A stretch of 53,350 nucleotides of DNA, counting the filler, from Jimgerdemannia flammicorona (lineage: Eukaryota), in NCBI GenBank assembly GCA_003990765.1. It is 2 parts of 2 records of this genome, joined end to end, with 100 filler letters (N's around TTAATTAATTAA, not from the genome) between each part and the next. Parts side by side here need not be neighbours in the genome. Positions count along the whole stretch, not along the records: positions 1 to 26,626 come from RBNJ01000710.1; 1 more part is not named here. One strand, 5' to 3'. Positions within the stretch are counted from its first letter, which is position 1. Every line of letters begins with the position of its first letter. Below are positions 6,871-40,750 of this stretch, one piece after another. The notes under the pieces were generated by a model. That model worked only from the letters and a program-made list of their open reading frames with translations, was not told the DNA's origin and did not search any database. A program made the translations under genes and the position numbers.

Positions 6871-8176
6871 TATTATATAGTAGTTACTGAGTTCTTTAAA
6901 TATATCAGATTCTCTTCAAGGTGTATCTCTTAGACTATCTCAAGTTTGTTATAAGCAAGTTCTTATTGGAGTACCTTCCTAAGGTCTTATAGTCCTCAAA
7001 CTTCTTATCTTTAAACTGTCTTATTATTCCTTTAGATTGCTTGCAAGGAATTGTATATATTAGACTGAGAGGAACTGACTTTATTTCAAAGGAAATAAGA
7101 GAGATATTTATACAAAATATAATTCAATAGTTGCTAAGATATAAAGCTAAATATAAATTCCAATAAATAAATAAAATACTAGAACACAGAAAACTATAGT
7201 TATCAGTACAGATTTTAGTATTAGTACAAATGGTTGCATAAGTTCAGGGTGCTGGTAGAATTTTAGTAGTATAGGAAAAATACTGAAAGAATTTGGAGTT
7301 ATACAGGATTAGAATACCAGTAGAAGAATTAACTATTATATAGGAAAAGAATGCTGGCAGAATTCAGTATTACTAAGAACTCAGAGCAGAAAGTTCAGAA
7401 CTATGGGGGTTTCATCCTCATCACTGTCCTCAAAGGAGATGAGGTCTGTGAATATTTTGTCTGTTTCATGTACTTCATCATACATTTCACATATGTTGTG
7501 CAGGATGACATCATTGTCAATGACATCATCATATTTAGTGGCAGGGAGAGTAAGGAGATCAGAAGCTCTCTAGTCTATAAGGTCCTCTTCTACAAAATAA
7601 GGGACAAATGTGGGGTCTTGGAGAGATCTAACCTGGATGCTTGGACCTTGGAATACTGAGATCAATCCTTGTAGGAATTGATCTGGGTTATCTTGGAGGA
7701 TGGGATACCAGAACTCTTCTACCTCATCACTGTTGAGGGTGATAGTGGACTAGGCTTCTATAGCCACCATGGCTTCTAGTATATTGATATAGTGGGCTGA
7801 CAGATCTCTGAAGTCTGAGACTCTGATATACTCCAAGTTGGAGATCAACTATAGTGTATGCCTGAAGATCTGATGAATCTTCTTGACTATTCTTATTTTA
7901 TATATATATATCAATGAGAGTGGTATCTTGTAGCTCTTGAGGGCTAGCTTGAGGGAATTTCTGGCAGAGGAGGTTTCCTATAATGCCTATCACTCAGACC
8001 AAATGCATCTAAGCCATCAGAAGGGTGAGTATCTTAAGTTTTGGAGGCCATAAGCATAGGCTCCAAGGAGTACTGACAGATATATCTCGTCCCTTAGGTA
8101 TAGAAGTCCTATCTGGTCTTTTCAGTGTGGCCATAGCTTTAGTTTCAGCAAGTTACAAGGATTTCAAGAATTTCAG

Positions 8177-8565
8177 ACAAGATGTACAAGATGAGCAATA
8201 TAGGCAAGACAGGCAAAATAGGCAAAACAGGTAAGATGGGCAATATGGGCAATATGGACAATATGAGCAATATGGGCAATATAGGCAATATGGACAAAGT
8301 GGGCAAGATAGTAAGATGGCAAGATGGGCAAGATGGGCAAGACAGCAAGATAGTAAGATAGTAAGACAGCAAGATGGTAAGATGGGCAAGATGATAAGAT
8401 AGGTAAGATAGGCAAGGTAAGATGAGCAATAAGAGTAAGATGGGCAAAATGGGCAAAACAGAATGAGTAAGATGGGCAAGATAGGCAATATGGGCAATAT
8501 GGACAATATGGGAAATATGGGTAAGATGGGCAAGATGGCAAGATAGCAAGATAGGCAAGACAGGC
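8177..8565 (+). repeat. Degenerate 8-9-bp satellite (AAGATGGGC/AATATGGGC), left part
   Basis: Directly visible tandem units. Confidence 0.95.
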
Positions 8566-8893
8566 ATCTCTCTCCAGTACTATTTAGATTACACAACCTT
8601 TGGAAAGCACTTATAATATTATTTATTGGAGAAAGTAACTAGCAATATGGTGACTGACCAGCAATCTGAGGTGTGTACTGGGCAGGGTGGCCCAAGTGCA
8701 TTCAACTGGCATGGGGTGAGGCCCTAGGCTGGGGGGAGGTATGAGGGGGCTACTGGCAGAAGGATGTGGTAGAGGAGGGGGCAGCAGTAGAGGACCAGGG
8801 CCTGGAAGGGTGAGCTTCGCAGAGATGGTAAAGGGGAGACAGTAGGCATCTGGGCTGGAGGGATGGCTGAGGAGGGACAAGGAGGTAGGGAAG

Positions 8894-9754
8894 ATGGCAG
8901 CTCAGAGGGGAGTAGCCCTTAGTGGTGGAGGCAGTGGAGCTGTGGGTGTAGTGGCTGGGGAGAGCATGATGGCTGATGGAGACAGGACTGCTAATCTGGA
9001 AAAAAATCCAGATATGACTGCCAATGGCATGGCTGAGTGGCAGGGGCTTGGAAGATCAGGGGATTTGGCAGATGGTGTGATGGGCCTAGCAGTGGCCCTG
9101 TTACTCAAGAAATTGATCTTGGTATTTGCAGTTACTCTGTGCTTCTGGGGCCTAGCAGTGACAGCGAAAATGGTGCTAGGACTCATCACTAAACAGGTGG
9201 CTGGAGCAGCATCCATAAAGTTTCTAAAGAGATTGAAGGGAGTGGAGGTGGGATTCAAGGAGGCTGAGCCTTTGGAGGAGGCACTGAAGGTGGGATTGAC
9301 TGTTGGGAAGGTGTGTGTTCTGATGACATGTTGTCTTAGGTGGGATCTCAGAGTGGTACAACTGCTGGTGAAAGAGGTACCTATGGTGATGGCAGTAGAG
9401 ATGAGAAGGAGAGTTGAAGAGGTCATGGCAGAGTATGGTGATGTAGTGGACATCAGCTTCAGAGTATGGGAAGGGACCTCACTCTGGACTGGAGATGTTG
9501 ATGTGAGGATTCAGCTGGCAGAGAAGGAAGCTACCAGGAAGATAAGAGACTGGCCTTCAGTAATGGTCTGGGGGGCAATCTTGTACAAGGTGACGAGGGT
9601 GAAGGGGAGTGAGGAGGAGGAAGAGGATCTGTTGGAGACACTGGAAGAGCTGGGTGGTATAGTGAAGCAGAGGGCAAAGGCTTGGAAGGCATTTGTAGAG
9701 TCCACACACCTGGAGGTGGTGGATGGGAAGTGGATTCATATAGACAAGAAGTAG
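8894..9754 (+). pseudogene. LINE ORF1 remnant (possibly once extending toward ~10700)
   Basis: Lies upstream of APE; VEEVMAEYGDVVDISFRVWEGTSLWTGDVDVRIQL resembles L1/Tx1 ORF1 RRM-like region. Confidence 0.65.
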
Positions 9755-10724
9755 TGGGAAAGGGCTCAGGGATGCAAGAGACAGAAGAAATTGTTGGCAA
9801 AGCTAGAGGAGAGGCCACAGAAGAATGCAGGCAGAATGGGGGAGATGGCAGGTGCTAAAGTAAGTATCTGAGCAGGCAAGGGTGGCAGGAGTGCTGAGAA
9901 GGGGACTGGAGAGGTCAGGGAGGTGGTGGGCAATAACCCCTATGCTGATAGTATGTTTGAGGTCTGGGAGGAGGATGGGGAAGCCTCACCTACCCCTTCT
10001 CCACTTATCATATGTGGTCCAGCTTCCTGAAGCAGGGTGGAGGAGGATATACCTATGTGGGGGGCCCAGTGAGTTTAATTTGGAGTTCCAGAGGTGGTGG
10101 ATGGTGGACAAGGGGTGGCAGTTGGAGAGGAGGAACTGGTGGATGTCTCTGAGATATGAGATGAGTCTGCAAGTGCCAGAGCTAATACCATGATGCTGGA
10201 TGGAGAGAGGCCTGCAACTTCTGAAGGGAAGGAGGTTGGGAATCTACTTTGGATGTATCAGATGATGAATAACCTGGTGGCTGATGAGTTGGGAGAGGTA
10301 GACTTGAGAGTCATGAGTGATGAGCATTGGGTGAGAGTCCTGCAAGGGGTTGGAGTGGTATTGGCATTGAAGGCGGAAATTCTTGCCATATATTTGGGGA
10401 AGGAAGGGTATGAGGTGGATGAGGAGCAGGAGGCAGAATTGGCAGACATTGCTGGTGAGAGGGCTGAATACTGCTGGACCAAGCATCATGGACTGTAGCT
10501 CTGGCAGGAGGCCTGCCTGGAGTACCAGGAAGAGTTTGAGGAGAAGGCGGGTGGGGAGATGAATGAGCTGTTGGCTAGATTGGAGGCTCAGAGGGCTGGG
10601 GAGAAAGCAGTGACTACAGAACATAATCTGGACTTGGCACAGGAAGAGAGGAACATGGAGCAGTAGGAATGGACTGGATAATACACCATATCTCACTATG
10701 AATAGTACAACCAACATTTTTTTT

Positions 10725-13700
10725 TTTGAACATGAATGGGCTGAGGAGTACTTTTCAACATAGGAATATTTTTACTTGGCTGAAGAGATTGGAGGCCAAT
10801 CTCTTCCTATTGTGGGATGTCTGGTATGAAGATGATTTGGATAGACTAGATTGGATGAAAGAATAGGGAGGAGAGATAGTTTGGAAGGGCAAGGTGGGAA
10901 TTCTGGTCTGGAAAGGCAGAGGGGAGATATGAGATGTGAGGAGCTGGGGGGATAGACTGGTCTGGGGAGAATGGATATATACAGGTTAGGAGCCAGTCAT
11001 AGTGGACTCCTGCTACTGCCTCACTGTATGGGGTGAGCATGTGGATTGGGTGTGGGGTCTCCAGGAGAGCAGGGTCCTTGTAAAAGCTGGAGTGGATATG
11101 CTTGGTGGAGATTTCAATATGGTCCAGGATGTGCAGTTAGATAGAATGGATGGTGGCTAGGGAGCTGAGACTAGGAGTGGAGGGCTGGTGGTATGGGAGG
11201 AAGTAGAAAGGCTTAGTACTCTGATAGATGTGGGTAGGAAGTACTAGGGGGATAGAAGAGTGTACACACATTGGGCAGGGGGTCTGGGGACAAGGATTGA
11301 CTGAATTCTGATGGCTAGCTGCTGGGGCTTGGATGTCTAGAAGTTGCTGAAGGTAGAATGGTATCCATGGTCAGATCATTGGGGGTTGTTAGGATGAGGA
11401 TATTTTGGGGGGAGTGGGGATGGGCCTGGACATTGGCACCTCAATACCTCTTTATTAGATAATGGGATCTGATGGGATGAGTAAGCTGAGGACATACAAC
11501 TGAGGGTGACAAGCTGGAGACAGGAAGGTGCCCCTGTTGGTATTTGGTGGATGAGGTTGAAAGAGAGAGCAAGGGCCTACTGGAGTGAGGTTGGCAAGGA
11601 GGTGGGGAAGTAGAGGAGGCAACAGGTGAGATGGGCTACAGGTAGGCTCTCTAGACTCTTAGAGGATTGGGCAGGCCTAGCAACATCAGTGAGAGGCGAA
11701 GACTGGAGGTTGAGGAGGGCTAAAATGGAAGTTGGAGAATTGCAACAGATGTTGCGGGAAGAGGAGGAGGCCAGGGTACAGAGCCTGGTGGTGTGGCTTC
11801 ATTAGTAGAGTTTGGAGGAAGGAGAGAGGTCCTCAAAGTACCTCATGAGGGTCCTTCAGGCAAGAAGGGTACAGCAATGATGGGAGGGGGTGATTGACTC
11901 TGAGGGTATACTGGTATATGGTGTATAAGACATTCTTGGGTCACTTAAGGAGTGGTGGAGTGGGTTGTGGAGTGAGGAGCTGACCCTGATACCATTGATT
12001 GGGCATTGGAGGATTAGTACCCCCTACAAGTGGATGGGCTAGAGGACTTGGTGCTACCAGTTCAAGAGGAAGAAATCTGCCAGGTTCTTGCAGCAACAAT
12101 GTTGGGTACTATACCTGGGGAGGATGGTCTGCCCTGAGACTTCTGGAAGAAAATGGTGGGAGTTCCTAGAGTACTGAGTGAGATAACAGTATTGTGTAAC
12201 TATATCCTGTAGACAGGGAGATGGGTGGGGGAGCAGGATCTGGGGCTGGTGACATTACTTTACAAGAACAAAGGAAGGTGAGAGAACTGGAAGAACTGGC
12301 AGCTGATTATGCTGCTGGATATGGACAGAAAATTGGTCACAAAAGTGGTAGTTACAAGGCTACAGAAGGTAGCCCAGCAAGTTCTGGGTGTTGAACAGAG
12401 AGGCTTTGTAGGCGGCTAGCTCATTAGGGATGGTATGGCCTGGGTGTATGGCATTATTGAAGGGGCATGAGCTTGTGGACTAGATGGGAGACTGGTCTTC
12501 TTAGATCAGGAGAAGGCTTATGACTGAGTGTGACAAGTTTGGCTAGGGAAAGTATGGACAGAACTAGAGTTCCACACCAGTTCTGGTTGGTGATGATCAG
12601 CCTATTGAAAGGGAGTAGGGCTGCACTCATTTGTAATAGACATAGAGAGATATCATTCCCCCTGGGAAGAGGTGTTCCACAGGGTGACCCACTGTCCCCC
12701 ATTCTGTATGCTCTCTCACTGGAACCTCTAATGGACAGAATTCAGAGAAAGATAGAAGGGCTTGCCATCTTTGGAATTGGGTGGAAAGTTGGGGCCTTTG
12801 CAGATAACATGGTGGTCAGCCTGGGATCTATTGCTGATGTTGAAGAGCTAAAGAGGACAGTGGAGTGGTATGAGATGAACTCTGGGACTAAGCTCAATTG
12901 GCATAAGTGTGAGACAATGGTATTAGGTAATGGCCTGGTGGGGGGAGACATTATTGGAACTATCATCTCTGCTGGTGAGGTGGTGTGGTATCTGGGCATT
13001 TATTTGTCAGTATATGGATCAGTACTTCCCAGACTCTGGTGGAAACAGAGAATAGGAGTCTGGGGGGAGGACCTGCAGAGCTGGAGAGGTTGTCACTTGT
13101 CTCTGGTGGGGCAGGTCTCGGTTTTGAATATCTATTGGCTGCTGAAGTTGTGATACCTGGCTTATCACTTGGACTTCCCAGTCTGGGTAGTGAAGAGACT
13201 ATTGAAGCTGGCCAAAGGGTGGATCTGGGCTGGAAGGAGAAGTCAGATTGGTTGGGAGATCTTGTCCTTACCAGTGGAAAGAGAAGGTCTTAGACTGGTT
13301 GACTTCCTGAAGAGGTTACATTGCCTGAGAGTATGGTGGATAAAGAGAGCAATGGAGCTAAGAGGGGGTGGCTGGGTCCCACTCTTGCAGAAAGTTTGGG
13401 AGTTGAGGTCTTCACCAAGAGGCTCATCAGGAGATCTCCTTTCATTGGTTGGACTTCAGAACATTACCCAATTGCATTATAAATGTTTCTGGTGGGGAGT
13501 AGTAGAGGGGGCACACCATATTGGAATTCATTAGTAAGGAAATGAGGGAGAAGAGGCCTGGGACCTGGCAATGTAGAGATGGGATTGAGTGTTGCTGGGA
13601 GGTGTGCCCTTAACCAAGTTTGACATTGATGATGGGATAGATTGCCAACGAGGACCAGGCCAGGATCTGTGGCCTAGTGGATGGCAGGGAGTGGGTATTG

Positions 13701-14346
13701 GTGAGGATTGGGACTGGCATGGTGTTTGGGCATAGAGTGCTGAGGTGTAGAGATAGATGCCACTGAAGTACTGGGTGATCTGGTGGTACATGTTGAGGAG
13801 GAATGTCATGCTCAACTTCCATTCAGGCCACCTTATTGAGGGGGGTTGTTTCGACTGTGAGGAGTACCACAATGTAGAGCAGGTTGGAGGATATGTACAG
13901 ATACCTGAACATTGGCTAGGAGAGTGTGAGGTACTTAGTGACTTTTGGAGAGCTGTTGGAGATCGTTTGGGAGTAGCATGTAGGGGACATAGTATATGGG
14001 GCCAGTGGGAGGACTTGAGGGATAGACTGGTGGGGGGGGGGTGGGAAAGGAGTGGCTCATATTAGGTTGGATTTTGGTGATTTAAGTAGGGTTGGCAGGT
14101 CACTGGTTGTTTGTTTTTGAAGATGGGAGGCAACTGAGCCTGGGGGATTGGCTGCTGTGCTGGCATAGACTTGTGGAAGATACCCTGACAGGCTGGTGGC
14201 TTGGTTGGGAATTGCAGGGTAGGCGAAGGCATTATTTAGTAGAGAAGATTTGTAGACAGAGTGGGGGTAGAGTGGGAGTGATAGGTGTGAAGGTGGCTTT
14301 TGTTGGTAATGATGCAGGGGAAGACTCCCCCATGGGGATCAGATAG
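10725..14346 (+). pseudogene. LINE ORF2 remnant: AP endonuclease, reverse transcriptase, C-terminal Cys/His finger
   Basis: LNMNGL, GGDFN, TRID, SDH, GHWHLNTSLL; PGEDGLP, LDQEKAYD, GVPQGDPLSP, AFADN (decayed YADD-type box); CFDC...EHWLGEC; many stops. Confidence 0.92.
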
Positions 14347-14431
14347 TGGGAGGTGATATTGTATACTTATCTTATAGAATGGTAATAAATGACAAAGTCT
14401 AAGTGACTATAAAAAAAAAAAAAAAAAAAAA

Positions 14432-15128
14432 TAGACAAGATGGGCAAAATGACAAGATAGGTAAGATAGATAAGACAGCAAGATAGACAAGATAGTAAGA
14501 TAGACAACATGGGCAAGATGGGCAAAACAGATAAAACAGAATGGGTAAGATAGGCAATATGGGCAACATGGGCAGTATGAGCAATATGAGCAATATGGGC
14601 AATATAGGCAAGACAGGCAAGATAGCAAGATGGTAAGATGGACAAGATAGTAAGATAGCAAGATGGCAAGATAGATAAGATGATAAGATAGACATGATAG
14701 CAAGATGAGCAACATAGGCAAGATAAGCAAAACAGGCAAAACAGGATTGGTAAGATAGGTAATACAGGTAATATAGACATCATAGGCAATATAGGCAATA
14801 TGGACAATATGGGTAAGACAGCAAGATGGCAAGATGAGCAAGATGGGCAAGACAGTAAGACAGTAAGACAGCAAGACAGTAAGATGAGTAAGAAGACAGG
14901 TAAGATAGGTAAGATGGCAAGACAGGCAATATAGGTAAGATAGGCAAAATGAGCAAAATGGGCAAGATTAGCAATATGGGTAATATAGGCAATACAGGCA
15001 ATATAGGCAAGATAGTAAGAGTAAGACAGGAAAGATAGAAATATGGATAAGATAGAGAAGACAGGTAAGATTGATGAGATAGGCAAGACAGATAAGATAG
15101 TAAGACAGGCAAGACAGACAAGATGGGG
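14432..15128 (+). repeat. 8-9-bp satellite, right part
   Basis: Same units as 8177-8565, resuming after the LINE poly(A). Confidence 0.95.
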
Positions 15129-15892
15129 AGGCACTAATAAGGATAGGTCAGGTGCACTAGATGCTGAGTACTTGAGGTGGTTGGGGCTTACAACCTATAC
15201 TCACTCTTGAGTGGGGCAGGCCAGGTAGGAGGATTTAGTTATTCAGATAGTGAGGTCACAACTTACACTATAAAGGTACTAAGATTGTTATTGGTTTGGA
15301 GAGCAAATAAGTATGGGGATACCAGTGCGGTATGAGGATATATGAATATTATAGATAGTTAATAAATGTGGCTTTGGTCTATAGAAAAAAAAAAAAAAGA
15401 GGTTTCCTATTTTATATTCTTGCTATATCTGGAGGCATTCAGTAGCAATGGTGATTCTTGTTTTCATCTTGTGGTGGTAGAAAATATAATGATAAGGATC
15501 ACTAGTACCCAGGTTGACACTAGGAATCCTTATAGTGTAAGTCCTTATGGCTCTTCAGATGTCTTGGAACATCCTTTCCTGGACTGAGGGGTCTTGGTGA
15601 TTCTTTGACCTTGAGGTTTGGTGAGCAGCAGACATTTTATTTATAGTAAGTCTTTGAGCTATTTCATAAATAGTGGGTCTTGTTGAGTTACTACTACTGT
15701 AGTTTCTTGATTCTTCTTTTATATTTCTCGAGATATCTATCTTATGGTCCCAATGACTCACAGTTGATCATTCTTACTCATCTTATAGCCTGGGTGAGTT
15801 ATGCCATATGATCTTCTTGTGCTTCAATCTGGTGGCTTGCAAGGAAAGGCTGTCTCCTATGCTGATATCATCATTCTGAGATCACTATTATA

Positions 15893-15902
15893 TCTTCTTC
15901 CT
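15893..15902 (-). other. Polypurine tract of element B
   Basis: AGGAAGAAGA immediately before the 3' LTR; AGGAGGAAGA at the same position in the copy at 25589-25598. Confidence 0.8.
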
Positions 15903-16253
15903 GAATAAGGATCTTCTCTTGAATGTCCTTATTCATTGATCCAGTCTTGAAAAATTTGCTGATCCCATAACCTCTGGTAGGGGATTGAAAAGTAGTGTTT
16001 ATGGGCTGGTATCTTCTCTATGTATTTTGGCATGATAGTGAAGAGTCACTCTCTTCATATAAAGTAAGGGCCTGATTCTGATCTTGATCAATCAGTTGAT
16101 GGTTCAAACTCCTCTGGCTTTGAAAGTCTTATAGATGAATAGTTGCTAGTGCTGTATCTCTTAGAGAATGGTCCAGACAGATTGCCTGCTGGTCATGGGA
16201 CATATGTACTGTTATGATTCACAGACTAGAATCTTACAGACAGTTATTACATT

Positions 16254-17340
16254 TTACTTCTCTTGTATAGGTTCATAGTACTTCTTGAGTCTGTTCATAG
16301 TAAATAGTATGGTTTCTGAGAGTTTTCTAAGCCAGAAGATAGTTCTCTTGATATCTTGCACATAGAAGAGTTCTTTCTATTTGGGCTCCAGTTTTTGCAA
16401 CCATAAGACTTCTACTATATTTTGATATAGTAGGACCTTTTCTCTGATTTGGATAGATTCTAGGGTCTTGTGATTCTTTTCTACATTCTTTCTTATCAGC
16501 ACTTGTGACTTGATGATGTAATATTCAGCCTTCTTCCAGATTTGGTGTAGTCTCTGAATTTCTGAGTCAACTTATCTCTAAGTTAGGTCTAGATTTGTGG
16601 CTGAGGTTCCATTAGAATCTTCTTCTCCAAAGAGCAGATCTCTTAGAGTAAAGTATGTACTCTGTGATTATATATCTCATAGGATAGAGAGAGCAGTTGA
16701 GAGATAGTTATTCTAATTCTCATATATATCTGAGATCTTTGCCAAGATGTTCTTGAGGGTCTTATTGATTCTCTCTATTTGTCCATTTTCTTAAGAGTGA
16801 TATACAGTAGTTTTGATATACTGAATCTTATATTTCTGATACATTATCTCATGGAATCTATTGATAAATTCTGTGCCATAGTCTGTGGTAATTTGCTTTG
16901 GTGTCTTGTAGCAGCAGATGATTTCTTAATGCAGGAAGTTAGCTATAGAGAGGGCATTGGCTTCTTGTAATGCTCTTGCTTTTATTCATTTAGTAAAGAG
17001 GTCTACAATAACTATATAATATAGCAGTTTTCTGATAGTATCACTGGTAGTGGTCCAATGATATCTATTACAATGTGGTAGAAGAGGATAGGCTCAATTC
17101 TTGATGATCTGGATGCTTGGTCTTGCTGATCATATTTCTGTTTTTAGCACTTATTACACTCTTTGACAAATTGGCACAGGTCTTCTTCTATCTTAGACCA
17201 CTACATGGTTCTTCTTACCTTATTGTATATATTGGTTCTTCTGAGGTATTCTTGTTCATATACTTCCTTCATTACTTGATACTTCTTGTATTTGGGTATT
17301 ATGAGCTTTTCTCCTTTTCTGAGTATAGTATTGTCTAGTT
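16254..17340 (-). pseudogene. pol: Integrase domain of element B
   Basis: DIIGPLPV, VDLFTK, decayed GPY/F motif (KLEPK*KELFYVQD), terminal MNRLKKYYEPIQEK*. Confidence 0.88.
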
Positions 17341-17499
17341 CAAACTGTTTCCAAGTCCAGTTAATGATAGTGATAGTCCAGGGTTTGAGGTGGTTGGGCA
17401 TCTTCTGCTACCTAAGATAGCTGATTAATCCATAGTATAACTCCTTATTTATGTTGAATAGTCTTGATGGGGGTGTTTTGGGGTATCCTTGAGAGTGTA

Positions 17500-18780
17500 T
17501 CAGCATTGGCATTGGTTCTTCCTGAGCAGTACTTGACAGTACAGTCATACTATTACAGTCTGTAGATCTATCTGACATATATTCCTTTAGGGTTCAGAGT
17601 GTGGAATAGCCAGGCAAGAGCAGAATGATCTGTTGAATAATGAAGTATTTCTCAGCTAGGTAGTAGTGGAACTTATCTACTACCCAAACTACTGCTAAGC
17701 ATTCTAGCTTGCATGACTCATAGTTCTGTTCTGCTCTATAGATATCTCAGCTTATATGAGAGATAACATATTTATGTCCATCTTTCATCTAAGCTAGGAC
17801 TGCTCTAAGTTCTATAGTACTTACATCTATTTGCAGGATGAACTCTAGGTTCCAATCTAGTCTTCTGAGGATGGGTGCTTGGGTCAATCTGGTCTTGAGT
17901 TTATTGAAGATTTTTTGCCATTCCTTGGTTCATTCAAATTTGGTCTCCTTCTTCAGTAGCTTATAGATGGGTGCTGCAATGTTGGAGTATTCTTTGATGA
18001 ATCTTCTGTAATAGGAGGCCAGTCCAAGGAAGGCATGGACTTCTATAGTTGTCCTGGGTCTTGGGTAGGCTGCAATAGCCTCAATCTATAGGGTCTATGT
18101 GAATTTCAGTCTGGTTGATGATGTGTCCTAGGTAGGTAATTTCTCAGGCTGCAAACTTGCACTTCTTGGGCTTGATGTAGAGGCCATACTCCTTGAGCTT
18201 CTTATATATAGTTAATATGTTTCCATGAAGTGTTACTGAAGATGATCACATCATCAACATAGACAAAGAGCCATTTTTAAATCTCATTGCTGAAGACTCT
18301 GTTCATTATTTACTAAAAACTTGCTGGAGTATTGTACATTCCAAATGGTATTTGTAGGTAGATATAGATGGCATCAGATGTGATGAAGGCTGATTTATCA
18401 CTGGTATCTTGAGTGAGACCAATCTGATGGAAGCCTGAGAACAGATCCAGGGTGGTATAGTATTTGGTTTCACTTCCAAGAGTAGTAAGGATTTCTTGAA
18501 TATTTGGCAAGGGCTGCCTATCCTTCTTGGTGATTGCATTGAGCTTCCTGTAATCAATGCAGAGTCTTGGGGCAAACTCTCCAGGCTTGCTTTCTTTCTT
18601 TGGGATGAGGACAATAGGTGAAGCCCAGGGGCTGATAGCTTACTTGATGATTTTGGCTTCTTCCATTTCCTTGAGTTCTGCTTGCAGCCATTCTCTGCAG
18701 GCAGGTGGTATAGGTCTGGCTTTCTGGTAGATGGGCTTGGTATCACTGGTGTCAACTTCATGGTAATATTTGGGTTCTTG
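17500..18780 (-). pseudogene. pol: Reverse transcriptase and RNase H of element B
   Basis: SPWASPIVLIPKK, RLCIDYRKLN, LDLFSGFHQI, PFG, FVYVDDVIIFS (~18237-18268), YESCKLECLAVVW. Confidence 0.95.
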
Positions 18781-18949
18781 ATTATAGATATCCCTGAAGT
18801 CTATAGCAAGTACTCTTTCATTCTGATGCAGGATCTTGAAAAGTTGTTCTTCTAGAGGAAAGTTTTCTCCAATGATATATGTGTACTTGTTCTGGTCCTT
18901 GTCTTTCTTGTGCTCAAGTTCAGTAATCTTGATAGCAGTATAGGCTCCT

Positions 18950-19370
18950 CTTTCAGTAGATCCAAAGTCTAATTCTCCTCTCTTGATCTTGATGAGTTCA
19001 ATGGCTTCAGTGACCTTAGGCTTCTTGATTTTATAGATCAACATCTAGCCAATCCTGTCATGCTTCTTGACTTTGAATGGGGTAGTGGAGTTGTGATTTC
19101 TGACTATAAGGAAGATCTCACTAGTGTAATCAGGGTCAATTACTCCTCCTTTAACTGAGATTTCGCTTTTGGCCAGACTGCTCCTAGTCTTGATAATTCT
19201 GGTATAGTTCTCTGACAACTTGACTCCAATACCTATGCCAAGTAGAGTAGTGGTCTGTGGTTCAAGGGTAGCATCTTGAATGCTGGCAAGGTCTATTTCT
19301 ATGGCTCCTTCAGTCTTGTATTCTGGGATCTTGGCTTTGGGGTAGAACTTCTTGACTTTGAGGATGATGT
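18950..19370 (-). pseudogene. dUTPase domain in pol, between protease and RT
   Basis: All five trimeric dUTPase motifs in one frame: GAIEIDL, TRSSLA, GVIDPDYTSE, DRIG*(Q), RGELDFGST. Confidence 0.92.
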
Positions 19371-19828
19371 CTAGTTCTTATTCCTCCTTGTCATCACTGT
19401 CAGCTTAAAGCTCTGGGGGCTGGTCAGCTTCTTTAGCTTTCCTTTTTGCTTTAGCAGCTTCTTGCTTATGCTTTTGTTGGCAGATTTTCCTAACTTCACT
19501 GATACAGGACCAGCAGTCATTCAGGTGTTTGGAGCAGTACATCCTAGTACTATAGGGGCATCTTCTTTGAGGGGCATAGCAATTGATGATCTTATTATAC
19601 CACTGCTCATCTGTAAGCTTGGGTGTCTTGTTCTTATTCTTATTCTTGTTCACTGAGTATATGAAGACTTCTGTATCCTCTTTCTCTATATCTGGTAGAA
19701 CTTCTTTGTGGATATTAATAGAGACTCATACCTTTCTTCTTCTATAGTTGATCTGCATTTTCTGGGTATGATGGCCTTGGCCTTATAAAGCTATTGATTG
19801 CTAATGAGGATGTCATAGTTGGTAGTGC

Positions 19829-20475
19829 TTTTTTTTTTTTTTTTTTTTTTTTTTATAGTCTCTTGGACTTCCTTCCTTTATTACTCCCTTCTATCTCATA
19901 TAAATACAATGATCCCTTCTCCTATCCGATCCCCCTTGGAGGGCCCCCCCCTCCTACCCCTTTCTGATGAAAGACCACTTTGTCTAATATAATCCCCACC
20001 CTCCCTCTACTCTGTGCACAGATCCTAGCCACCAAACCACAATGTCACCTGCCCTGAGGCCCCCACCATACCCACCATCTATTCAACAGATCCCCCAGCA
20101 GCACCTCTCACCATAATACCTTCTCCCATAGCTCTATCTGCTGCCCCTCCTCAAATACAAAAAGCCAATGTCCTACCAGTCCCACCCACACTGCTAATAC
20201 CCACCCTATAGTGAGCCAACTATTACCCACCCCACCCACTAGCCAAGATCTCAAATCTTCCCAGCGGCCTCCTACACCCACCAGCCTCCTCTCCACACCC
20301 AGTCTATTCTCTATTTCTACCCAGAAGTCTCCCAAAACCTCACACTCTCCCAGCCAATGTTCTGGCATCTGCACAAGTCCCCCAGCTTGCCCTATATTGT
20401 AGTATTCCTCACAATTGAAATGGCCACCATCCACCAAATGCCCAGTGTAGAAATTCAACATGACATTCCTCCACA
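19829..20475 (-). mobile_element. 5'-truncated LINE copy inserted in the protease region of element B
   Basis: Poly(A) at 19829-19854; homologous to 13790-14410; 15-bp TSD CATAGTTGGTAGTGC / CATAGTTAGTAGTAC (19814-19828, 20476-20490). Confidence 0.92.
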
Positions 20476-20730
20476 CATAGTTAGTAGTACTTGTAACAAT
20501 TATGTCTACTGGGATGATAGCTCCTCCAATCTTGATAGAGACTTCTTGGATCTTGCCAAGGGGGGTAGCTTGTATACTATCTGCTATAATATAGACCATC
20601 TTAGTAGACTCTTCAATGTCTCAGCCTAGGTAGTCAATTGTCTTCTTACTCATAAGGCATCCTTCAGTATTAGTATCAATGATGGTATTAAAGATACAAT
20701 CTTTAATCTGATACAGGGTATAGGCTGATG
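20476..20730 (-). pseudogene. pol: Aspartic protease of element B (continues at ~19750-19828)
   Basis: FNTIIDTNTEGCLMS (decayed DTG motif)...PLGKIQEVSIKIGGAIIPVDIIV; resumes YDILI after the insertion. Confidence 0.85.
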
Positions 20731-22201
20731 TCTTGTACTGGTCATCAGATTCTTTGCCTGAATCTTCTTGATTATCTTCTTGTACATTGTGAGCTTCTAT
20801 GATCTTGTACTCTTGGTTCTTGACAGTAGTTATAAGTTCTACTCTTAACTACTGTCTGAAGGCAGAGACTTTGACTAGGTGTCCAAAAGTAGCATTGACC
20901 TTCTATTCCTTGAGATCCTTGTAGATATCATACTGGTGGATCTTGGTCTTGTACAGCTTCTGTTCCTTCTTGCTTTCACTTTCTCCTGAGACTGGAGTAG
21001 TATCTTCAATAATTTGGTTAGCAGCTTTATCTAACTCCATATCTTGATCAATCTCCTCAGATTGGGTCTTGCTTTGAATAGTGATAGCTGGGGTCTTCTT
21101 TGGTCTTCCAACTGGCTTGCTGTTACTCTTCTTGTCATAGGGCTTACATACCAGGTTCTGGTACCTTCAGTAACAGGGTAGAATTTGGACTCCTTATAGT
21201 ATTCTTCATCATCAGTATCACCAATCTCCTTGATGACTACTGCATTGGTTTGTTCTCTAGTTCTGATAGCATTGCTTGGTTGGGCTTTGCATCTTATTTC
21301 AGTTATGCAACTCTTTGCATAGTGGTCTTCTTCTCTATATCTGAAGTATATAATATTGTATTCTTCTGTAGCAACTACAAATCTCTGTACTGGTCTTCTG
21401 TTAGTACTTCAGACTTCTCTAACAACATCACTAAGGTGTGCAGTCATCTTGGCAAACTGCTTAGTGAGTTCCTCTACTGGGTCAGCTTTGGCTATCTTGG
21501 GGGTAGGTGGGGATAGTTGTCTGTTTACAACTGTAGTGGGTATGATACTGGTTGGCTTTGATGACTTTATGTTGATATCAGTTATTTTCTTCATTAAGTA
21601 TTTGGCAGGGTGTCTGGCAGTCCAATATCTCTGTACAAAGACCACTTTCTTATCAAGGGTCAGAGTAGCTAGAGTAGACCAGATTTCTAAGACAATTTTA
21701 GGGTGAACTCCTTTGAGGAAGATTGAATCTGCTATTTGTTCCTTAAGAGTATCATCATAGCCAGCCAAGACAATCTGGTGGCAGATTCAGGTATAGAATG
21801 AGTTGGAATCTTCACTGAGTCTCTGGCAGATAGTGTTGAGTTGATCCTTGAGAGCTTGTTTGATCTCTTCAGTATAGTATATAGTTCTGAGGAAGGTCTT
21901 CATATTAGCAAGTTTGGCTGCACCAGCATCAGCAATAGTGGCTGCATTAAACTTATCTCTGGCAGGTTCTCTGAGGCTGACTGATAGAAGGGCCAATTGT
22001 GCATCCATACCAAGGACTCATATGGCAGTGAATTATTCAAAGTCTTCAATGAAGATCAGGATTGTCTCTTCAGTAATATATCTATAGAATGTGGGGGGAT
22101 GTATTTCCATCTTATCTTGAATTCTTACAGAGGTAACTCTTGTAGTCAGGGTAGTTGTTGTAGTGGTTGTTCATTTTTCAGCTTGAAAGTGAGGGATTCA
22201 T
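20730..22201 (-). pseudogene. gag: gag of element B
   Basis: MEIHPPTF..., IFLKGVHPKI, DPVEELTKQFAKM; directly downstream of the PBS. Confidence 0.8.
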
Positions 22202-22209
22202 CTTGAATC

Positions 22210-22227
22210 ACCAGTCAATGAGCACCA
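22210..22227 (-). other. Primer binding site of element B
   Basis: TGGTGCTCATTGACTGGT starting 3 nt after the 5' LTR; cognate tRNA not identified. Confidence 0.7.
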
Positions 22228-22230
22228 AGT

Positions 22231-23826
22231 TATCATATAGTAGTTGTTGAGTCCTTCAAATATGTCAGATTCTTTTCAAGGTATATCTCTTAGACAAACT
22301 CAAGTTTGTTATAAGCAAGTTCTTATTGAAGTACCTTCCTAAGGTATAATAGTTCTCAAACTTCTTATATTTAAACTGTCTTGTTATCTCTTTAGATTGC
22401 TTGCAAGGAATTGTATATATTGCACTGAGAGAAATTAACTTTATTTCAAAGGAAATAAGAGGGATATTTATACAAAATATAATTCAATAGTTGCTAAGAT
22501 ATGTATAAAGCTAAATATAAATTCCAATAACTAAATAAAATACTGGAATATAGAAAACTATAGTTGTCAGTACAGATTCCAGTATTGATACAGATAGTTG
22601 TATAAGATCAGAGTGCTGGTAGAATTTCAGTAGTACAGGAAAAGGATGCTAGAAGAATTTGGAGTCATACAGGATTAGAATGTCAGTAGAAGGATTAACT
22701 GTTACATGGGAAAAGGATACTGGCAGAATTCAGTATTACTAAGAACTCAGAGCAGAAAGTTCAGGACAATGAGGGCATCATCCTCATCACTGTTCTCAAA
22801 GAAGATGAGGTCTGCAAATGTTTCATCCATTTTGTATACTTCATCACATATTTCATATATATCATATAGAATAACATTATTGCTGATAACATCATCATAT
22901 TCAGTGGTAGGGAGAGCAAGGAGATCAGGGGCTCTCTAGTCTATGAGGTCCTCTTCTACAAAATAAGAGACAAATGTAGGGTCTTGAGAAGGTCTAACCT
23001 AGATACTTGGGCCTTGGAATACTGAGATCAATCCTTGTAGAAATTGATCTGAGTTGTTCTGAAGGATGGGATACCAGAACTCTTCTACCTCATCACTATT
23101 GAGGGTGATAGTAGACTGGGCTTCTGTAGCCACTATGGCTTTTAGTGCATTGATATAGCAGGCTGACAGATCTCTGAAATCTGAGACTCTGGTATACTTC
23201 AAGTTGGAGATCAATCATGGTATATGCCTGAAGATCTGATGAATCTTCTTGGCTGTCCTTATTTCATATATATCTATAAGAGTAGTATCTTGTAGCTCTT
23301 GAGGGCTGACTTGAGGGAATTCTCAGCAGAGGAGGTTTCCTATTTCATATTCTTGCCATATCTGGAGGTATTCAGTAGCAATAGTGATTCTTGTTTCCAT
23401 CTCATAGTAGTAGAGAATATAATGATAAGGGTCACCAATACCCAGGTTGACACTAGGAGTCCTTGTGGTGCAGGTCCTTATGGCTCTTTGAATGTCTTAG
23501 AACATCCTTTTCTAGACTGAGAGACCTTAGTGATTCTTTTGACCTTGAGGTTTGATAAGTAGCAGGCATTTTGTTTATAGTAAGTCTTTGAGCTATTTCA
23601 GAAATAGTGGGTCTTATTGAGTTGCTACTACTGCAGTTTCTTGATCTTTCTTTTATATTTCTTGAGATGTCTGTTTTGTAGTCTCAATAACTCACAGTTG
23701 GTCATTCTTGCTCATCTTGTATCCTAGGTGAGTTATGCCATATAATCTTCTTATACTTCAATCTGGTGGCTTATAAGAAAAGACTGTCTCCTGTGCTGAT
23801 GTCATCATTCTGAGATCACTGTTACA
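22231..23826 (-). repeat. 5' LTR of element B (1596 bp)
   Basis: TGTAAC...TGATA (decayed TGACA); flanked by PBS and TSD. Confidence 0.9.
22747..23569 (-). pseudogene. ~274-codon ORF inside the LTR, unknown product
   Basis: MPATYQ...WQEYEIGNLL...AKKIHQIFRHIP*LISNLKYTRVSDF...VLNFLL*; small indels in this copy, frame kept in copy 24505-25329. Confidence 0.7.
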
Positions 23827-23830
23827 ATAC

Positions 23831-24040
23831 TAATATATATATAAGAGAAAGATACTTAGAAAAATTAAAAAGAGTAAAGAAATATATAAAATCAACCTCT
23901 AAGCTATAGTAAGTATAATTGTTTTCCAAAATGTAATTATCCAATCCTCTCAAATCAATAACTCTATTTAATCAAAATTATTTAGTCATATATATACTTT
24001 GGCAGAGTTTTAAAATTAGCTCATTTACTAGATTATATAC
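23831..24040 (+). pseudogene. Old hAT transposase, continuation after element B
   Basis: Aligns with the reverse complement of 31700-31890 (ACTTTGGCAGAGTTTTAAAATTAGCTCATT vs TCTTTGGCAGAATTTCGAAATCGGCTCGTT). Confidence 0.75.
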
Positions 24041-25961
24041 TGTCACATAGTAGTCACTGAGTCATTCAAATATGTTAGATTCTCTTTAAGATATCTCTTA
24101 GACTAACCACAAGTTTGTTATAAGCAAGTTCTTATTAGAGTGTCTTCCCAAGGTCTTATAGTTCTCAAACTTCTTATCTTCAAACTGTCTTGTTATCTCT
24201 TAGATTGCTTATATAAAATTGAGTATAAGTGAATTGGAACTGATATTTTAAAAGAAATAAGAGGAATATTTATACAAAATATAATTTGATAGTTGCTAAG
24301 TTATAAAGCTAAATATAAATTCCAATAACTAAATAAAATACTGGAATACAGAAAACTATAGTCGTAAGTACAAATTCAAGTATCTGTACAAATAGTTGTA
24401 TAAGTTCAGGATATCAGAAGATTTTAGTGATATAGGAAAAGGGTATCTAAAGATTCAGATGTTACAGAAAAAGAATGCCAGAAGATTTTGGTGTTATCAA
24501 AAACTTAGAGCAGAATGTTCAGGACCATGGGGGCTTCATCTTTATTGCTGCCAGAGGTCAGGATATCCTTAAAGAAAGTGAGGTCTGTAAACATTTCATC
24601 TATTTTACATATTTCATATATGTTATATAGGATGATATCATTACTAGTGATATCATCACATTTAGTGGTAGAGAGAGCAAGGAGGTCCAGGGCTCTCCAA
24701 TCTATGATATTCTCTTCTACAAAATAAGGAACAAATGTAGGGTTTTGGAGAGATCTAACCTGGATACTGGGGCCTTAGAATGCTGAGATCAATTCTTATA
24801 TAAATTGATCTGGATTGTTCTGGAGAATGGGATATCAGAACTCTTCTACTTTATCACTATTGAGGGTGATGATGGACTGGACTTCTGTGGCCACCATGAC
24901 CTCCAGTATATTGGTATAGTAGGCTAATAGTTCCTTAAAGTCTGAGACTCTAGTATACTCCAAGTTAGAGATTAATCATAGTATATGCCTGAAGATCTGA
25001 TAAACCTTCTTAGCTGTCCTTATTTCATGTATATCTATGGGAGTGGTATCTTATATTTCTTAAAGACTGGCTTGAAGGAATTCCCAGTAGAGGAGGTTTT
25101 CTATTTTGTATTCCTATCATATTCAGAGGTATTCAGTAGTAATAGTGATTCTAGTTTCTATTTCACAATAGTAGAGAATATAATGATAAGAGTTACTAGT
25201 ACCCAGGTTGAGGCTAGGAGTCCTTCTTGTATAGGTCCTCATAGCTCTTTTGATGTCTTAGAATATCCTTTTCTGAACTGAGGGGCCTTGGTGATTCCTG
25301 GACCTTGAGATTTGATAAGTGGCAGATATTTATTTGTGGTAAGTCTTTGAAACTATTTCTGTGAGCTTTGTTTGGGTTGCTGCTACTATAGTTTCTTGAT
25401 CCTTTTTTTATATTCCTTGAGATACATATCTGTCTTATATGTAGTTATGATGACTCATAGTTGGTCATCATTACTCATCTTATAGTCTGGGTGAGTTATA
25501 CTATATGATCTTCTATGCTCTAATCTGGTGACTTATAAGGAAAGGCTGTCTCCTATATTGATATCATTATTCTGAGATCACCATTATATCTTCCTCCTGA
25601 ATAAGGATCTTCTCTTGAATGTTCTTATTCATTGGTCTAGTCTGAAAAATTTGCTGATCCTATAACCTCTGACAGGGAGTCAAAAAGTAATATTTATAGA
25701 CTGGTGTCTTCCCTATATATTTTGATATGATGGTGAAGGATCACTCCCTTTATATAGAGCAAGAGCCTGATTCTGATCTTGATCAATTAGTTGATAGTTT
25801 GAACTCCTTTGGCTTTGAAAGTCTCATGGATGAGTAGTTATTGATACTATATCCCTTAGAGAATAGTCTAGATAGATTGCTTGCTAGTTACAGAGCATGC
25901 TATTACAATTTGCAGACTAGAACCTCACAGGCAGTTATTACATTTTGCTTTTCTTATATAG
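24041..25961 (-). mobile_element. 3' end of a second family-B element: LTR 24041-25588, PPT, 3' internal region
   Basis: Collinear with 15399-16270 and 22231-23826; TGTCAC terminus. Confidence 0.88.
24505..25329 (-). pseudogene. LTR-embedded ORF, frame-preserved copy (825 nt)
   Basis: ATA (decayed ATG) to TAA is 275 codons; the internal stops I read are explainable by single transitions. Confidence 0.7.
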
Positions 25962-26382
25962 TGTCATGTAGTGGTTGCTGAGTCCTTCAAATATGCCAGA
26001 TTCTCTTCAAGATATATCTCTTAGACTAACTCAAGTTTGTTATAAGCAAGTTCTTATTGGAGTACCTTCCCAAGGTCTTATAGTCCTCAAACTTCTTATC
26101 TTTAACTATCTTGTTATCTCTTAGATTGCTTGTAAGGAAGTATGTATATTGCACTGAGAAGACTGACTTTATTTCAAAGAAAATAAGAGGAGTATTTATA
26201 CAAAATATAATTCAATGGTTGCTAAGATATAAAGCTAAATATAAATTCCAATAACTAAAATAAAATGCCAGGACAGGAAAAACTGCTAAGTTCTAGGGTT
26301 GGTACTGATGGTTGTATATGTTCAGGATGCTGGTATAATTTAGTGTTATATCAGAATGCTGGTGCTGGTATTATTCAGTGTT
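25962..26382 (-). mobile_element. Third family-B LTR end, nested in the second element
   Basis: TGTCATGTAGTGG terminus; collinear with 22231-22640. Confidence 0.85.
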
Positions 26383-26626
26383 GTGGGTGGGGTGGAGGAT
26401 AGTTGGCTCACTGTAGGATGGGTGTTGGCAGTATGGGTGGAATTGGCAGGCCATTGGCTTTTTGTATTTGAGGAGGGGCAGTGGCTGGGGCTAGGTGCGA
26501 AGGTGTTACGGTGGGAGGAGCTGGTGGGGGATCTGCTGACCGGGTGGTGGGTGGGTTGGGGTCCTCAAGGAGGACGACGTCGAGGTTTAGTGATGAAGAT
26601 CTGTGAGCAGAGTGGTGGGAGGGTGG
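26383..26626 (+). mobile_element. 5'-truncated LINE fragment, cut by the contig end
   Basis: Homologous to 14030-14275; retains several CpGs. Confidence 0.85.
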
Positions 26627-33354: not shown

Positions 33355-33802
33355 CTATATATAACTAGATTATTTATTAAACTATTTATAATAAATTATA
33401 ATTATATAAAGAATATTAATAAGTTATTTAAAATAATAAATCAGTTTTATAATATTTGAGAGAAGTTATATTTAGAGATTTTGATAAATAAAAAGTAATA
33501 TTAAGATAGTATAATTAAATAAATAAAGTAATATAAAAATATATTAGATATATAAAGATATAGAAATTTAAATAGATATCTCAAATATTGAAAGTAATCT
33601 TTGAAAAGAAAGATATAATATAAATATAAATATAAAATAAATATTGAATTAATAGATCTTAAGTCTGAGTTTTTAATTTAATATAAAGTTAAAGATTATT
33701 AAATTATCTTTTATAATAACTATGCCAGGCTATATTATAAATAATACTCAAAGTTAGTTATTAAATATCTCAGTAATATCAAAGATATATATTAGTTATA
33801 TA

Positions 33803-34342: not shown

Positions 34343-34400
34343 GTTATATATATATTTAACTACTATATAGTATAATTAACTTATATAAATAACTCTATAT

Positions 34401-40636: not shown

Positions 40637-40750
40637 CGTTGAGGTTTGGAACTTGTTTCGGATAATAGGGATGAGGTGGATAGAATACTAGCATAGAGTC
40701 TGACAGACGTCGATACTGGGGTTTTTGAGCTATATATTAGGGTTGGCCCG

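Follow-up and report, generated by a model that had tools for sequence, protein, structure and literature searches.

The stretch of DNA analysed here (the window; 53,350 nucleotides, filler included) comes from Jimgerdemannia flammicorona, assembly GCA_003990765.1, and its positions 1 to 26,626 from record RBNJ01000710.1. It contains a decayed LTR retrotransposon together with further LTR copies, and remnants of the same protein gene occur in four copies (A, B, C and the divergent E). Two conserved signal modules accompany the gene, P1 ahead of it and P2 behind it. The features are:

4497-4505, plus strand: P1 TATA box of copy E.
4561-5439, plus strand: gene of copy E, divergent and dead, with 15 in-frame stops and ATA at the start; the frame is retained throughout.
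5666-5700, plus strand: P2 module of copy E.
6871..7981, minus strand: 3' LTR (copy A), downstream part, with the remainder of the gene (~7381-7981), P2 and the LTR end.
7079-7114: P2 module of copy A.
7982..15398, plus strand: LINE-like non-LTR retrotransposon within the gene of copy A, ending in a poly(A) tail and flanked by a 12-bp target duplication.
12524-13150: RVT_1 domain (Pfam) of the inserted LINE-like element.
15399..16251, minus strand: 3' LTR (copy A), upstream part, carrying P1 and codons 1-79 of the gene.
~7381-7981 and 15399-15636, minus strand: split gene of copy A, with 5 in-frame stops, a frameshift and the 7.4-kb LINE insertion.
15717-15724: P1 TATA box of copy A.
16252..16264, minus strand: polypurine tract (PPT), with the pol stop codon TAA inside it and the TG of the LTR immediately after.
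16265..22213, minus strand: decayed internal region, gag first (Pfam, stops read through as X).
18316-18639, minus strand: RT (RVT_1, Pfam) in the internal region.
19048-19377, minus strand: dUTPase (Pfam) in the internal region.
22214..22227, minus strand: TGG-initiated PBS-like site, 3 nt beyond the LTR end of copy B.
22231..23826, minus strand: 5' LTR (copy B), starting with TGTAAC and ending with ...GATA, with ~400 nt deleted just after TGTAA.
22439..22474, minus strand: P2 module of copy B, in which an AATAAA-type signal follows TGTATAAATA.
22747..23569, minus strand: dead gene of copy B, with the ATG kept, 7 in-frame stops and a frameshift near codon 10.
23651..23658, minus strand: P1 TATA box (TATAAAA) of copy B, 89 nt upstream of the ATG.
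24041..25942, minus strand: LTR copy C (1902 nt), an older relative that is 77% identical to B.
24267-24276: P2 module of copy C, TATA box only.
24505 to ~25329, minus strand: dead gene of copy C, with 10 stops and the ATG changed to ATA.
25406-25413: P1 TATA box of copy C.
25943..26350, minus strand: copy D, with a ~390-nt LTR terminal portion at 25962-26350.
26167-26202: P2 module of copy D.

The carrier is a Ty3/gypsy LTR retrotransposon that bears a dUTPase and has an LTR of ~1.9 kb. Along the minus strand Pfam detected dUTPase, RVT_1, RT_RNaseH_2, Integrase_H2C2 and rve, i.e. the Ty3/gypsy order with the integrase after RT; a protease was not detected by Pfam in the internal region. The LTR copies A and B, which are mutually closest (87% identity), enclose this region, and direct repeats, PBS-like site, PPT and a flanking 4-bp duplication, by which LTR retrotransposons are recognized, are all present in the A/B element. 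The bounding by PBS, PPT and target site duplication that the first-pass annotation had described is recovered, the duplication being GTAT on both flanks, a match of only 4 bp that could be chance and that presupposes that LTR B starts with the TGTAAC at 23826. The LTRs begin with TGTAA; they end with an intact ...ACA in copies C and D, and mutation has turned this end into ATA in A and B. Only 19 nt (25943-25961), which include a PPT-like run, lie between the LTRs of copies C and D, which together are an LTR-PPT-LTR deletion derivative. A search for tRNA genes that might name the PBS primer found none within the window, and a search of the LTRs for tandem repeats as candidate response elements yielded only trivial AT-rich ones. 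The ratio of observed to expected CpG is 0.01-0.04 in the transposons versus 1.07 in the genic part; transposon CpG driven almost to zero by the host suggests strong methylation-linked pressure on these elements. Together with the dUTPase it may hint at a fungal host that methylates CpG in its repeats, which is a guess.

The gene lies wholly within the LTR, because the repeat unit begins behind the PPT and ends 3 nt before the PBS-like site. Between the first and the last LTR base the whole gene is found in the A/B pair, representing both LTRs of one element, and in copy C; in copy A it spans ~nt 616 to nt 1440 of the ~1950-nt LTR in sense orientation. This assignment covers one lineage (A/B/C) in one window, and the metagenome contigs that carry relatives of the gene are too short to extend to LTR ends. 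Copy E sits 3' of a related pol; the integrase region of that pol (606-1713, plus strand) can be aligned to the A/B element, and its coding homology stops near 1760. Thus, the placement inside LTRs proposed earlier for all copies stands for A, B and C, whereas for E only a position 3' of pol is demonstrable.

As annotated at first pass, the gene-bearing stretch occurs in four copies, all of which could be located, and the peptides quoted for a ~274-aa ORF at 22747..23569 are indeed encoded there, but on the minus rather than the plus strand. An open frame of 274 codons, however, exists in none of them: all four copies are dead, with 5 to 15 in-frame stops each in addition to frameshifts and the LINE insertion, and the start codon is lost in two of the four (C and E). 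Since all copies are pseudogenes, the window holds no working system, and the suggestion of an undescribed one is not borne out as written. The divergent copy E nevertheless keeps frame and protein similarity, as had been claimed, with the frame held across 254 aligned codons at 60% nucleotide identity.

Intact ORFs of 247-342 aa with 27-80% identity are present on metagenome contigs, and all full-length intact relatives begin with MP; a protein database displays only those copies that happen to be open and is thereby biased towards intactness. An exhaustive search of 1.84 billion representative proteins returned six matches, of which five belong to the family and come from short metagenome contigs and the sixth is a low-complexity chance match, and a profile search returned 11 matches, all of the same family. 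Nowhere are these proteins annotated beyond "hypothetical protein". Cellular homologues outside transposons were found in neither search, although repeat-masked genomes may conceal such genes, and no longer, fused form of the protein was seen among 2424 candidates, which is weak evidence. A scan of viral contigs yielded no family member. Two further candidates were discarded: L004, from a scan of genome contigs (a bacterial MAG), is just a 15-residue chance match, and L003, from a metagenome scan, is of the same short kind. A search of sequencing runs listed none of RNA and a single one of DNA, from a soil metagenome, which contains a fraction of 0.08 of the sampled words. The family is abundant in that run, with 5063 short contigs at at least 80% identity spanning all 30 bins, a figure that speaks to abundance and not to expression.

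Two of the intact relatives, L001 and L002, are free of stops and were used for codon comparison alongside the window copies. NG86 dN/dS ratios lie between 0.10 and 0.43, well below 1, in the 9 of 15 pairs with computable dS (dS was saturated in the other six); examples are 0.34 for B and C (bootstrap 0.25-0.51) and 0.21 for L001 and L002. In six of six pairs the annotated frame gave the lowest dN/dS, each time compared with the five other frames. We therefore consider it very likely that a real, selected gene resides inside this LTR, and the stretch in the window probably represents, in pseudogenised form, a real accessory gene that is lineage-specific and belongs to a Ty3/gypsy family with a dUTPase.

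The encoded protein opens with ~40 basic residues at its N-terminus, continues with a helical core whose length is fixed (173 aa) and finishes with a strongly acidic tail of 56-126 aa. Of the 15 rows of alignment A6, nine have a core of 173 aa and P0015 has one of 183 aa, the remaining five rows being truncated at one end. Net charge of the tail ranges from -14 to -25 in the eight untruncated intact proteins, and the pI is 4.1-5.9. Bulky hydrophobic residues stud the tail, in which F-x-x-L-I-type motifs recur and which closes with an LNF motif. Twelve proteins of at least 175 aa reach maximal 19-residue hydropathies of 0.47-1.07, i.e. no membrane span was found in them; one 174-aa fragment reaches 1.78. 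Two AlphaFold models, both of low confidence (mean pLDDT 48.4 and 49.9), agree on an all-helical core and a disordered tail, so that the helical core and acidic C-terminus noted earlier are upheld.

Searches for relatives of known sequence or structure remained empty. Pfam found nothing in two read-through copies and 11 intact members, except ATG5_HBR at E 0.088 in one of the 11, and a profile search of PDB sequences gave only a GNAT match at E 1.1. In the ESM Atlas, where the protein's own model has a pLDDT of 0.35, the best scores for the whole protein and the core were 0.83-0.86, below the bar of 0.9. Foldseek returned no match at E <= 0.001 against the PDB (both models) or BFVD (model 1). 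A wide VIA-align comparison matched only a single long helix of model 1 (Z up to 5.1), while for model 2 ~29 of 50 rows were helix-turn-helix or winged-helix DNA binders, aligned to residues ~73-116 at Z 3.1-4.4, which is below the noise of the tool and is taken as no more than a lead. When alignment A3 was compared by hhalign with the element's own gag read-through, the probability was 0.03, i.e. there was no gag similarity. Hence, the protein does not correspond to an already characterised gypsy domain; it forms an orphan family without detectable fold relative. Because no search assigns a fold, its function is a guess from composition.

Conserved sequence signals occur on either side of the gene. 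A P1 TATA box precedes the ATG by 65-90 nt in six of six sequences (A, B, C, E, L001 and L002; the box of L002, misplaced by MAFFT in alignment A4, was identified by eye), and the leader behind it is conserved even between lineages with saturated dS. The P2 module lies ~230-275 nt past the stop codon, in copy B ~273 nt beyond the stop and ~240 nt ahead of the LTR end, and is kept in lineages whose LTRs are otherwise unalignable. Its TATA box was found in six of six sequences (A, B, C, D, E and L001) and the AATAAA-type signal, ~26 nt behind the TATA box, in five of these; copy C has a small deletion at the respective position. In the 284 nt downstream of the L002 gene P2 was not found. Judged by its sequence, the module could equally be read as a fungal-type poly(A) signal, composed of efficiency element and AAUAAA, rather than as a promoter.

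From these signals we infer as follows where transcripts start, where poly(A) is added and where U3, R and U5 meet. The gene would reside in U3 and possess its own promoter, a reading to which we assign a probability of roughly 0.55; the U3 placement is proposed because the conserved TATA box and the AATAAA ~26 nt behind it lie downstream of the gene. These P2 signals would mark where U3 ends and a short R begins, leaving ~200 nt of U5. P1 would drive a monocistronic mRNA of ~1.1-1.2 kb terminating at the LTR's own poly(A) site, whereas genomic RNA would begin at P2 with gag as first cistron, and each LTR, whether 5', 3' or solo, would constitute a self-contained gene. The product would serve the element in trans as a soluble factor, its most likely role being that of a transcriptional activator or adaptor acting through its acidic, hydrophobic-studded tail. 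That the protein is a transactivator or other regulator is a tentative proposal, as such a tail and a TATA box belonging to the gene itself agree with a transactivator without demonstrating one. Somewhat more doubtful still is the full picture, in which every LTR would be an autonomous gene that combines a TATA promoter of its own and the LTR poly(A) site with a trans-acting factor of 270-340 aa, either a transactivator or an anti-silencing adaptor.

The same signals permit a different division of the LTR, which we regard as rather unlikely. P1 would be the sole promoter of the element, and the TATA box and AATAAA behind the gene would be a poly(A) signal only. R would then measure ~1.2 kb and contain the whole gene, which would be the first cistron and would be repeated at the 3' end of the genomic RNA; transcripts stopping early in the 5' LTR would provide a monocistronic mRNA. 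A single promoter per LTR is the simpler assumption, and conservation of P1 and its leader in all six sequences agrees with it. Fungal poly(A) signals consist of an efficiency and a positioning element, and TGTA/TATAAATA followed by AATAAA resembles such a pair. An R of ~1.2 kb would, however, far exceed any R region known to us, and gag would be placed behind a 270-codon ORF and a spacer of ~700 nt, so that its translation would need reinitiation or internal entry. Moreover, a strictly conserved canonical TATAAATA ~26 nt before AATAAA better suits the usual LTR core.

Other explanations question the gene's role, its position or its existence. It might be a passenger, i.e. a fragment of a host or foreign gene that was captured into the LTR and spread along with it, without a role in the life cycle and with leftover constraint. 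LTR retrotransposons do transduce host sequences, according to PMC7264820, and the protein has no recognisable retroelement domain; but neither the 1.84 billion representative proteins nor the profile search revealed a cellular homologue, purifying selection is still seen when lineages are compared that share 27-54% protein identity and whose LTRs cannot otherwise be aligned, and start codon, promoter box and leader are likewise conserved, which makes this quite improbable. Less probable again is that the LTR was mis-delimited, the true LTR being the last ~400 nt (the portion kept by copy D) and the gene an ordinary "ORF3" between pol and 3' LTR, with the window showing tandem LTR-ORF-LTR-ORF arrays. 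The 400-nt end indeed occurs in four copies versus three for the gene-bearing part, copy E is placeable only as 3' of pol, and extra ORFs that separate pol from the 3' LTR are the common arrangement (PMC7264820 and PMC5408684). Against this, a purine run and a TG start precede the gene-bearing part, beside pol in A and also in C; of the 400-nt ends, those of C and D lack a PBS-like site and only that of B, adjoining gag, has one; the gene-bearing part is also found upstream of gag, in B; and truncation accounts for copy D. Finally, the absence of any open copy from the window would suit a frame that is open by chance or an LTR segment that is conserved but non-coding, an idea that is hardly credible given the stop-free ORFs of L001 and L002, a dN/dS well below 1 in this frame only, and a frame preserved at 60% nucleotide identity.

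Accessory genes distinguish "complex" from simple retroviruses, and a protein gene inside an LTR is otherwise known mainly from a few retroviruses. In the literature "LTR ORF" mostly denotes sag of MMTV, a superantigen gene in U3 of a betaretrovirus LTR whose product is a type II membrane glycoprotein. Both are complete ORFs that lie downstream of the PPT within an LTR of unusual length and hence occur in both LTRs, and with the gene in U3, as we propose, both would lie upstream of the LTR's TATA box. In contrast, there is no similarity of sequence or fold, the carrier here is an env-less Ty3/gypsy retrotransposon, and the LTR-gene protein is acidic and without membrane span. In foamy viruses tas/bel1 is a small 3' regulator gene that reaches into U3 and is transcribed from a promoter of its own, upstream of the LTR promoter, and the C-terminus of Tas holds an acidic activation region. 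This promoter layout and activation region are mirrored by P1 and P2, which precede and follow the gene, and by the acidic tail. However, homology is lacking, and here gene and promoter are both entirely inside the LTR. Thus, features of the Tas/Tax type (acidic region, own TATA box) are present, but they are compositional, not functional, and neither sequence searches nor Foldseek matched a retroviral transactivator. The nef gene of HIV and SIV, also accessory and encoding an adaptor, overlaps U3 of the 3' LTR only in part, is expressed from spliced RNA and shows no homology.

Within gypsy-type elements, additional family-specific genes of unknown or non-canonical function are the closest parallel, i.e. 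the env-like and antisense aORFs of plant elements and the ORF3s of bdelloid Juno, Vesta and TelKA. Bdelloid and basidiomycete elements carry the dUTPase between PR and RT, as is the case here, and bdelloid LTRs measure only 159-551 bp (both from PMC5408684). As far as PMC7264820 describes them, known aORFs occupy the internal region, either upstream of gag or between pol and the 3' LTR, whereas the LTR gene lies behind the PPT and before the PBS, inside a 1.9-kb LTR. Similarity of its protein to GDSL, DEDDy or env-like proteins was not found in Pfam. Literature searches, with most subscription journals outside their coverage, returned no protein gene embedded in the LTR of a Ty3/gypsy element.

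A selected gene that lies wholly inside the LTR and has its own promoter box would be duplicated in each element and would survive in solo LTRs. Such a gene would change the reading of LTR "debris" and offer a tractable case of a retrotransposon-encoded trans-regulator. If each LTR were indeed autonomous, the entire family would continue to receive the factor in trans from solo LTRs that recombination had left behind. An env-less Ty3/gypsy retrotransposon would then have independently evolved a regulatory layer in the style of complex retroviruses, with a positive-feedback promoter pair like that of foamy viruses, on a protein fold not yet seen.

The region 22747-23569, described in the first-pass annotation as encoding a conserved protein of about 274 aa, contains no ATG-initiated frame of that length on either strand, and the peptides quoted there lie on minus-strand fragments of 57–76 aa in a stop-to-stop listing. 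Three-frame translation revealed a single main minus-strand frame, which is interrupted by stops. Every gene copy was threaded by tblastn onto an intact homologue and stops and frameshifts were counted.

Gene copies
~7381-7981 and 15399-15636, minus strand: copy A; 5 in-frame stops, one frameshift, 7.4-kb insertion
22747-23569, minus strand: copy B; 7 in-frame stops, frameshift near codon 10, ATG kept
24505 to ~25329, minus strand: copy C; 10 in-frame stops, ATG changed to ATA
4561-5439, plus strand: copy E, divergent; 15 in-frame stops, start is ATA, frame kept over 254 aligned codons

The four copies are indeed related and the divergent one keeps its frame, as had been claimed, but by their stops and other damage all four are pseudogenes rather than ORFs; they decayed after insertion. 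The CpG observed/expected ratio is 0.01–0.04 in the transposon-rich part of the window (1-26400) versus 1.07 in the genic part (35400-53350), and in the window copies Cys, Tyr or stop codons stand where the gene has arginine. Together these data suggest long-term CpG methylation and deamination directed at repeats. A soil-metagenome run provided 5063 short contigs with at least 80% identity, spanning all 30 bins of the element (15399-26400); compared with the window they differ mostly by A>G and T>C, so decay has gone further in the window copy. The genic part also harbors a tandem segmental duplication of ~10 kb (35480-40827 and 45811-50867, 81–88% identity), in which an SH3-domain exon lies at 35584-35922 and again at 45826-46191, and long frames (398 and 604 codons) have no Pfam match.

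Intact relatives of the gene exist elsewhere. A word-indexed search detected six proteins with 55–71% identity to the copy B read-through, two of them complete (247 and 271 aa). Exhaustive phmmer against 1.84 billion representative proteins gave six matches, i.e. five relatives, down to 31% identity, and one low-complexity chance match. All 11 matches of a profile search belonged to the family, which thereby gained a 325-aa protein from its most distant lineage. Every database relative resides on a short metagenome contig and is annotated as “hypothetical protein” at most. The two retrieved as DNA, L001 and L002, carry intact ORFs of 323 and 291 aa, respectively. Nei-Gojobori dN/dS was 0.10–0.43 in 9 of 15 pairs, dS being saturated in the other six; values were 0.34 for B–C (bootstrap 0.25–0.51), 0.31 for A–C, 0.43 for A–B, 0.22 for E–L001 and 0.21 for L001–L002. 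The strong transition bias was controlled for by rescoring six pairs, on unchanged aligned nucleotides, in all six frames. The annotated frame had the lowest dN/dS in every pair, while the other frames yielded 0.6–1.6, except for the wobble-sharing antisense frame (0.34–0.60). With dN/dS well below 1 in the computable pairs, the proposed protein conservation is borne out, and the LTR gene is, as judged from its substitution pattern, a protein-coding family under purifying selection.

Self-comparison delineated the repeats that carry copies A to C, together with a 3' remnant, D.

LTRs and associated features
16251 to 15399 and 7981 to 6871, minus strand: LTR copy A
23826 to 22231, minus strand: LTR copy B
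25942 to 24041, minus strand: LTR copy C
26350 to 25962, minus strand: LTR copy D, 3' remnant
22214-22227, minus strand: TGG-initiated PBS-like site, 3 nt past the end of B and followed by gag
7982-15398, plus strand: non-LTR (LINE-like) retrotransposon, 7.4 kb, inside LTR copy A

The insertion in copy A ends in poly(A), is flanked by a 12-bp target duplication and encodes an RVT_1 domain, and is therefore classified as LINE-like. One of its strands is strongly G-rich (GC skew ~+0.4 over 8-16 kb), and close to either end there are internally repeated blocks (8178-8563 and 14428-15127).

Between A and B, the minus strand encodes decayed gag, dUTPase, RT, RNase H, integrase zinc-binding domain and integrase core. 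By these domains the carrier is a Ty3/gypsy element with dUTPase placed between PR and RT. The repeat copies A and B are mutually closest (87% identity), each sharing 76–80% with C. The pol stop TAA falls within a purine run (16252-16264), immediately followed by the TGTAA of the repeat. The repeat terminus is ACA in C and D, changed to ATA in A and B. GTAT is found on both flanks, provided that B starts with the TGTAAC at 23826; ~400 nt just behind this start are missing. D and C are joined by 19 nt only (25943-25961), including a PPT-like run, and by this arrangement represent an LTR-PPT-LTR deletion derivative; the ends of LTR and pol have ~10 similar nt in common, which suggests that the whole internal region was lost by microhomology. 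We also considered an LTR comprising the last 400 nt only, with the gene as internal ORF3, and rejected it: PPT and TG start sit upstream of the gene-bearing part, and the PBS follows solely the 400-nt end adjoining gag. The gene had been placed inside LTRs bounded by PBS, PPT and target-site duplication. Placement inside an LTR holds for A, B and C, the A/B element having PBS, PPT and, as duplication, the conditional GTAT; for copy E, a position 3' of a related pol is all that can be stated. Gene copies A to C are LTR-borne, a placement seen in one element family in one window.

Sequence 606-1713, plus strand, aligns with the A/B element in its integrase region and is separated from copy E by ~2.8 kb, partly consisting of other repeats. 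One of them (2228-3503) matches 33082-34409 with 76–79% identity, partly inverted, and is probably a nested insertion. The region 1-1760, plus strand, is the 3' portion of another gypsy element, related to the first and tail-to-tail with it; its integrase region is 67% identical to 16315-17457. Two segments, 26383-26626 adjoining remnant D and 13794-14431 inside the LINE, match in inverted orientation (79% and 66%) a G-rich stretch, 19834-20475, within the gag-PR region of the gypsy element.

Close copies are about evenly similar along the entire LTR and the argument for regulatory signals therefore rests on comparison between lineages. A TATAAAA(G) box is located 65–90 nt upstream of the ATG in all six sequences (A, B, C, E, L001, L002; the box of L002 was misaligned by MAFFT), and ~17 nt immediately 5' of the ATG are conserved even across lineages with saturated synonymous divergence. 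The main rival explanation takes this box as the sole promoter, with an R of ~1.2 kb. The box is common to both readings, which part over a module downstream of the stop. There, TGTATAAATA occurs at ~230–275 nt in six of six sequences (A, B, C, D, E, L001), followed after ~26 nt by an AATAAA-type signal in five of them, C having a small deletion at that place; the remainder of the LTRs cannot be aligned between lineages. In L002, the module is absent from the 284 nt of downstream sequence available. We favor the reading that the module would be the usual LTR core, i.e. the U3 end, a short R and then ~200 nt of U5, which would put the gene in U3 with the upstream box as its own promoter. Transcripts from this promoter would end at the LTR poly(A) site, and genomic RNA would begin downstream of the gene, so that gag would stay the first cistron.

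The proteins are acidic (pI 4.1–5.9) and have neither a conserved cysteine nor a membrane span. In alignments of full-length members, the N-terminal ~40 residues carry a net charge of +1 to +8. The core measures 173 aa in 9 of 15 alignment rows and 183 aa in one, the other five being truncated at one end. Conservation along the protein peaks in a basic helix that contains invariant H, Q and H. The tail (56–126 aa) has repeated phenylalanine/leucine/isoleucine motifs, a terminal LNF motif and a net charge of -14 to -25 in eight untruncated intact proteins. Hence, the acidic C-terminus predicted by the first-pass annotation is clear, while its helical core appears in two AlphaFold models of low confidence (mean pLDDT 48 and 50), which concur on an all-helical core with a small hairpin and leave the tail disordered. 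Comparison with protein families, solved structures and predicted viral structures gave no match, and neither a longer, fused form nor similarity to gag was detected, in agreement with the view that this is not a characterised gypsy domain. In one structural scan, many helix-turn-helix proteins were among the matches, all below noise level.

According to passages of reviews and surveys, extra ORFs of LTR retrotransposons lie in the internal region (PMC7264820; PMC5408684), bdelloid and basidiomycete elements have dUTPase between PR and RT, and bdelloid LTRs measure only 159–551 bp (PMC5408684). Full-text searches, incomplete in coverage, retrieved no case of a protein gene within a Ty3/gypsy LTR; the “LTR ORF” of the literature found is mostly MMTV sag. 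The gene resembles sag in position and foamy-virus tas in its proposed promoter layout and acidic tail, with no sequence likeness to any known system.

Acidic tails with bulky hydrophobic residues are the usual make-up of activation domains. This tail and a putative private promoter ahead of the element's promoter lead us to a tentative first guess, held at less than even odds, that the protein is a transactivator or adaptor. Taken together, the first-pass interpretation is supported in part: the gene is a genuine accessory gene, belongs to a new family and is unusually located.
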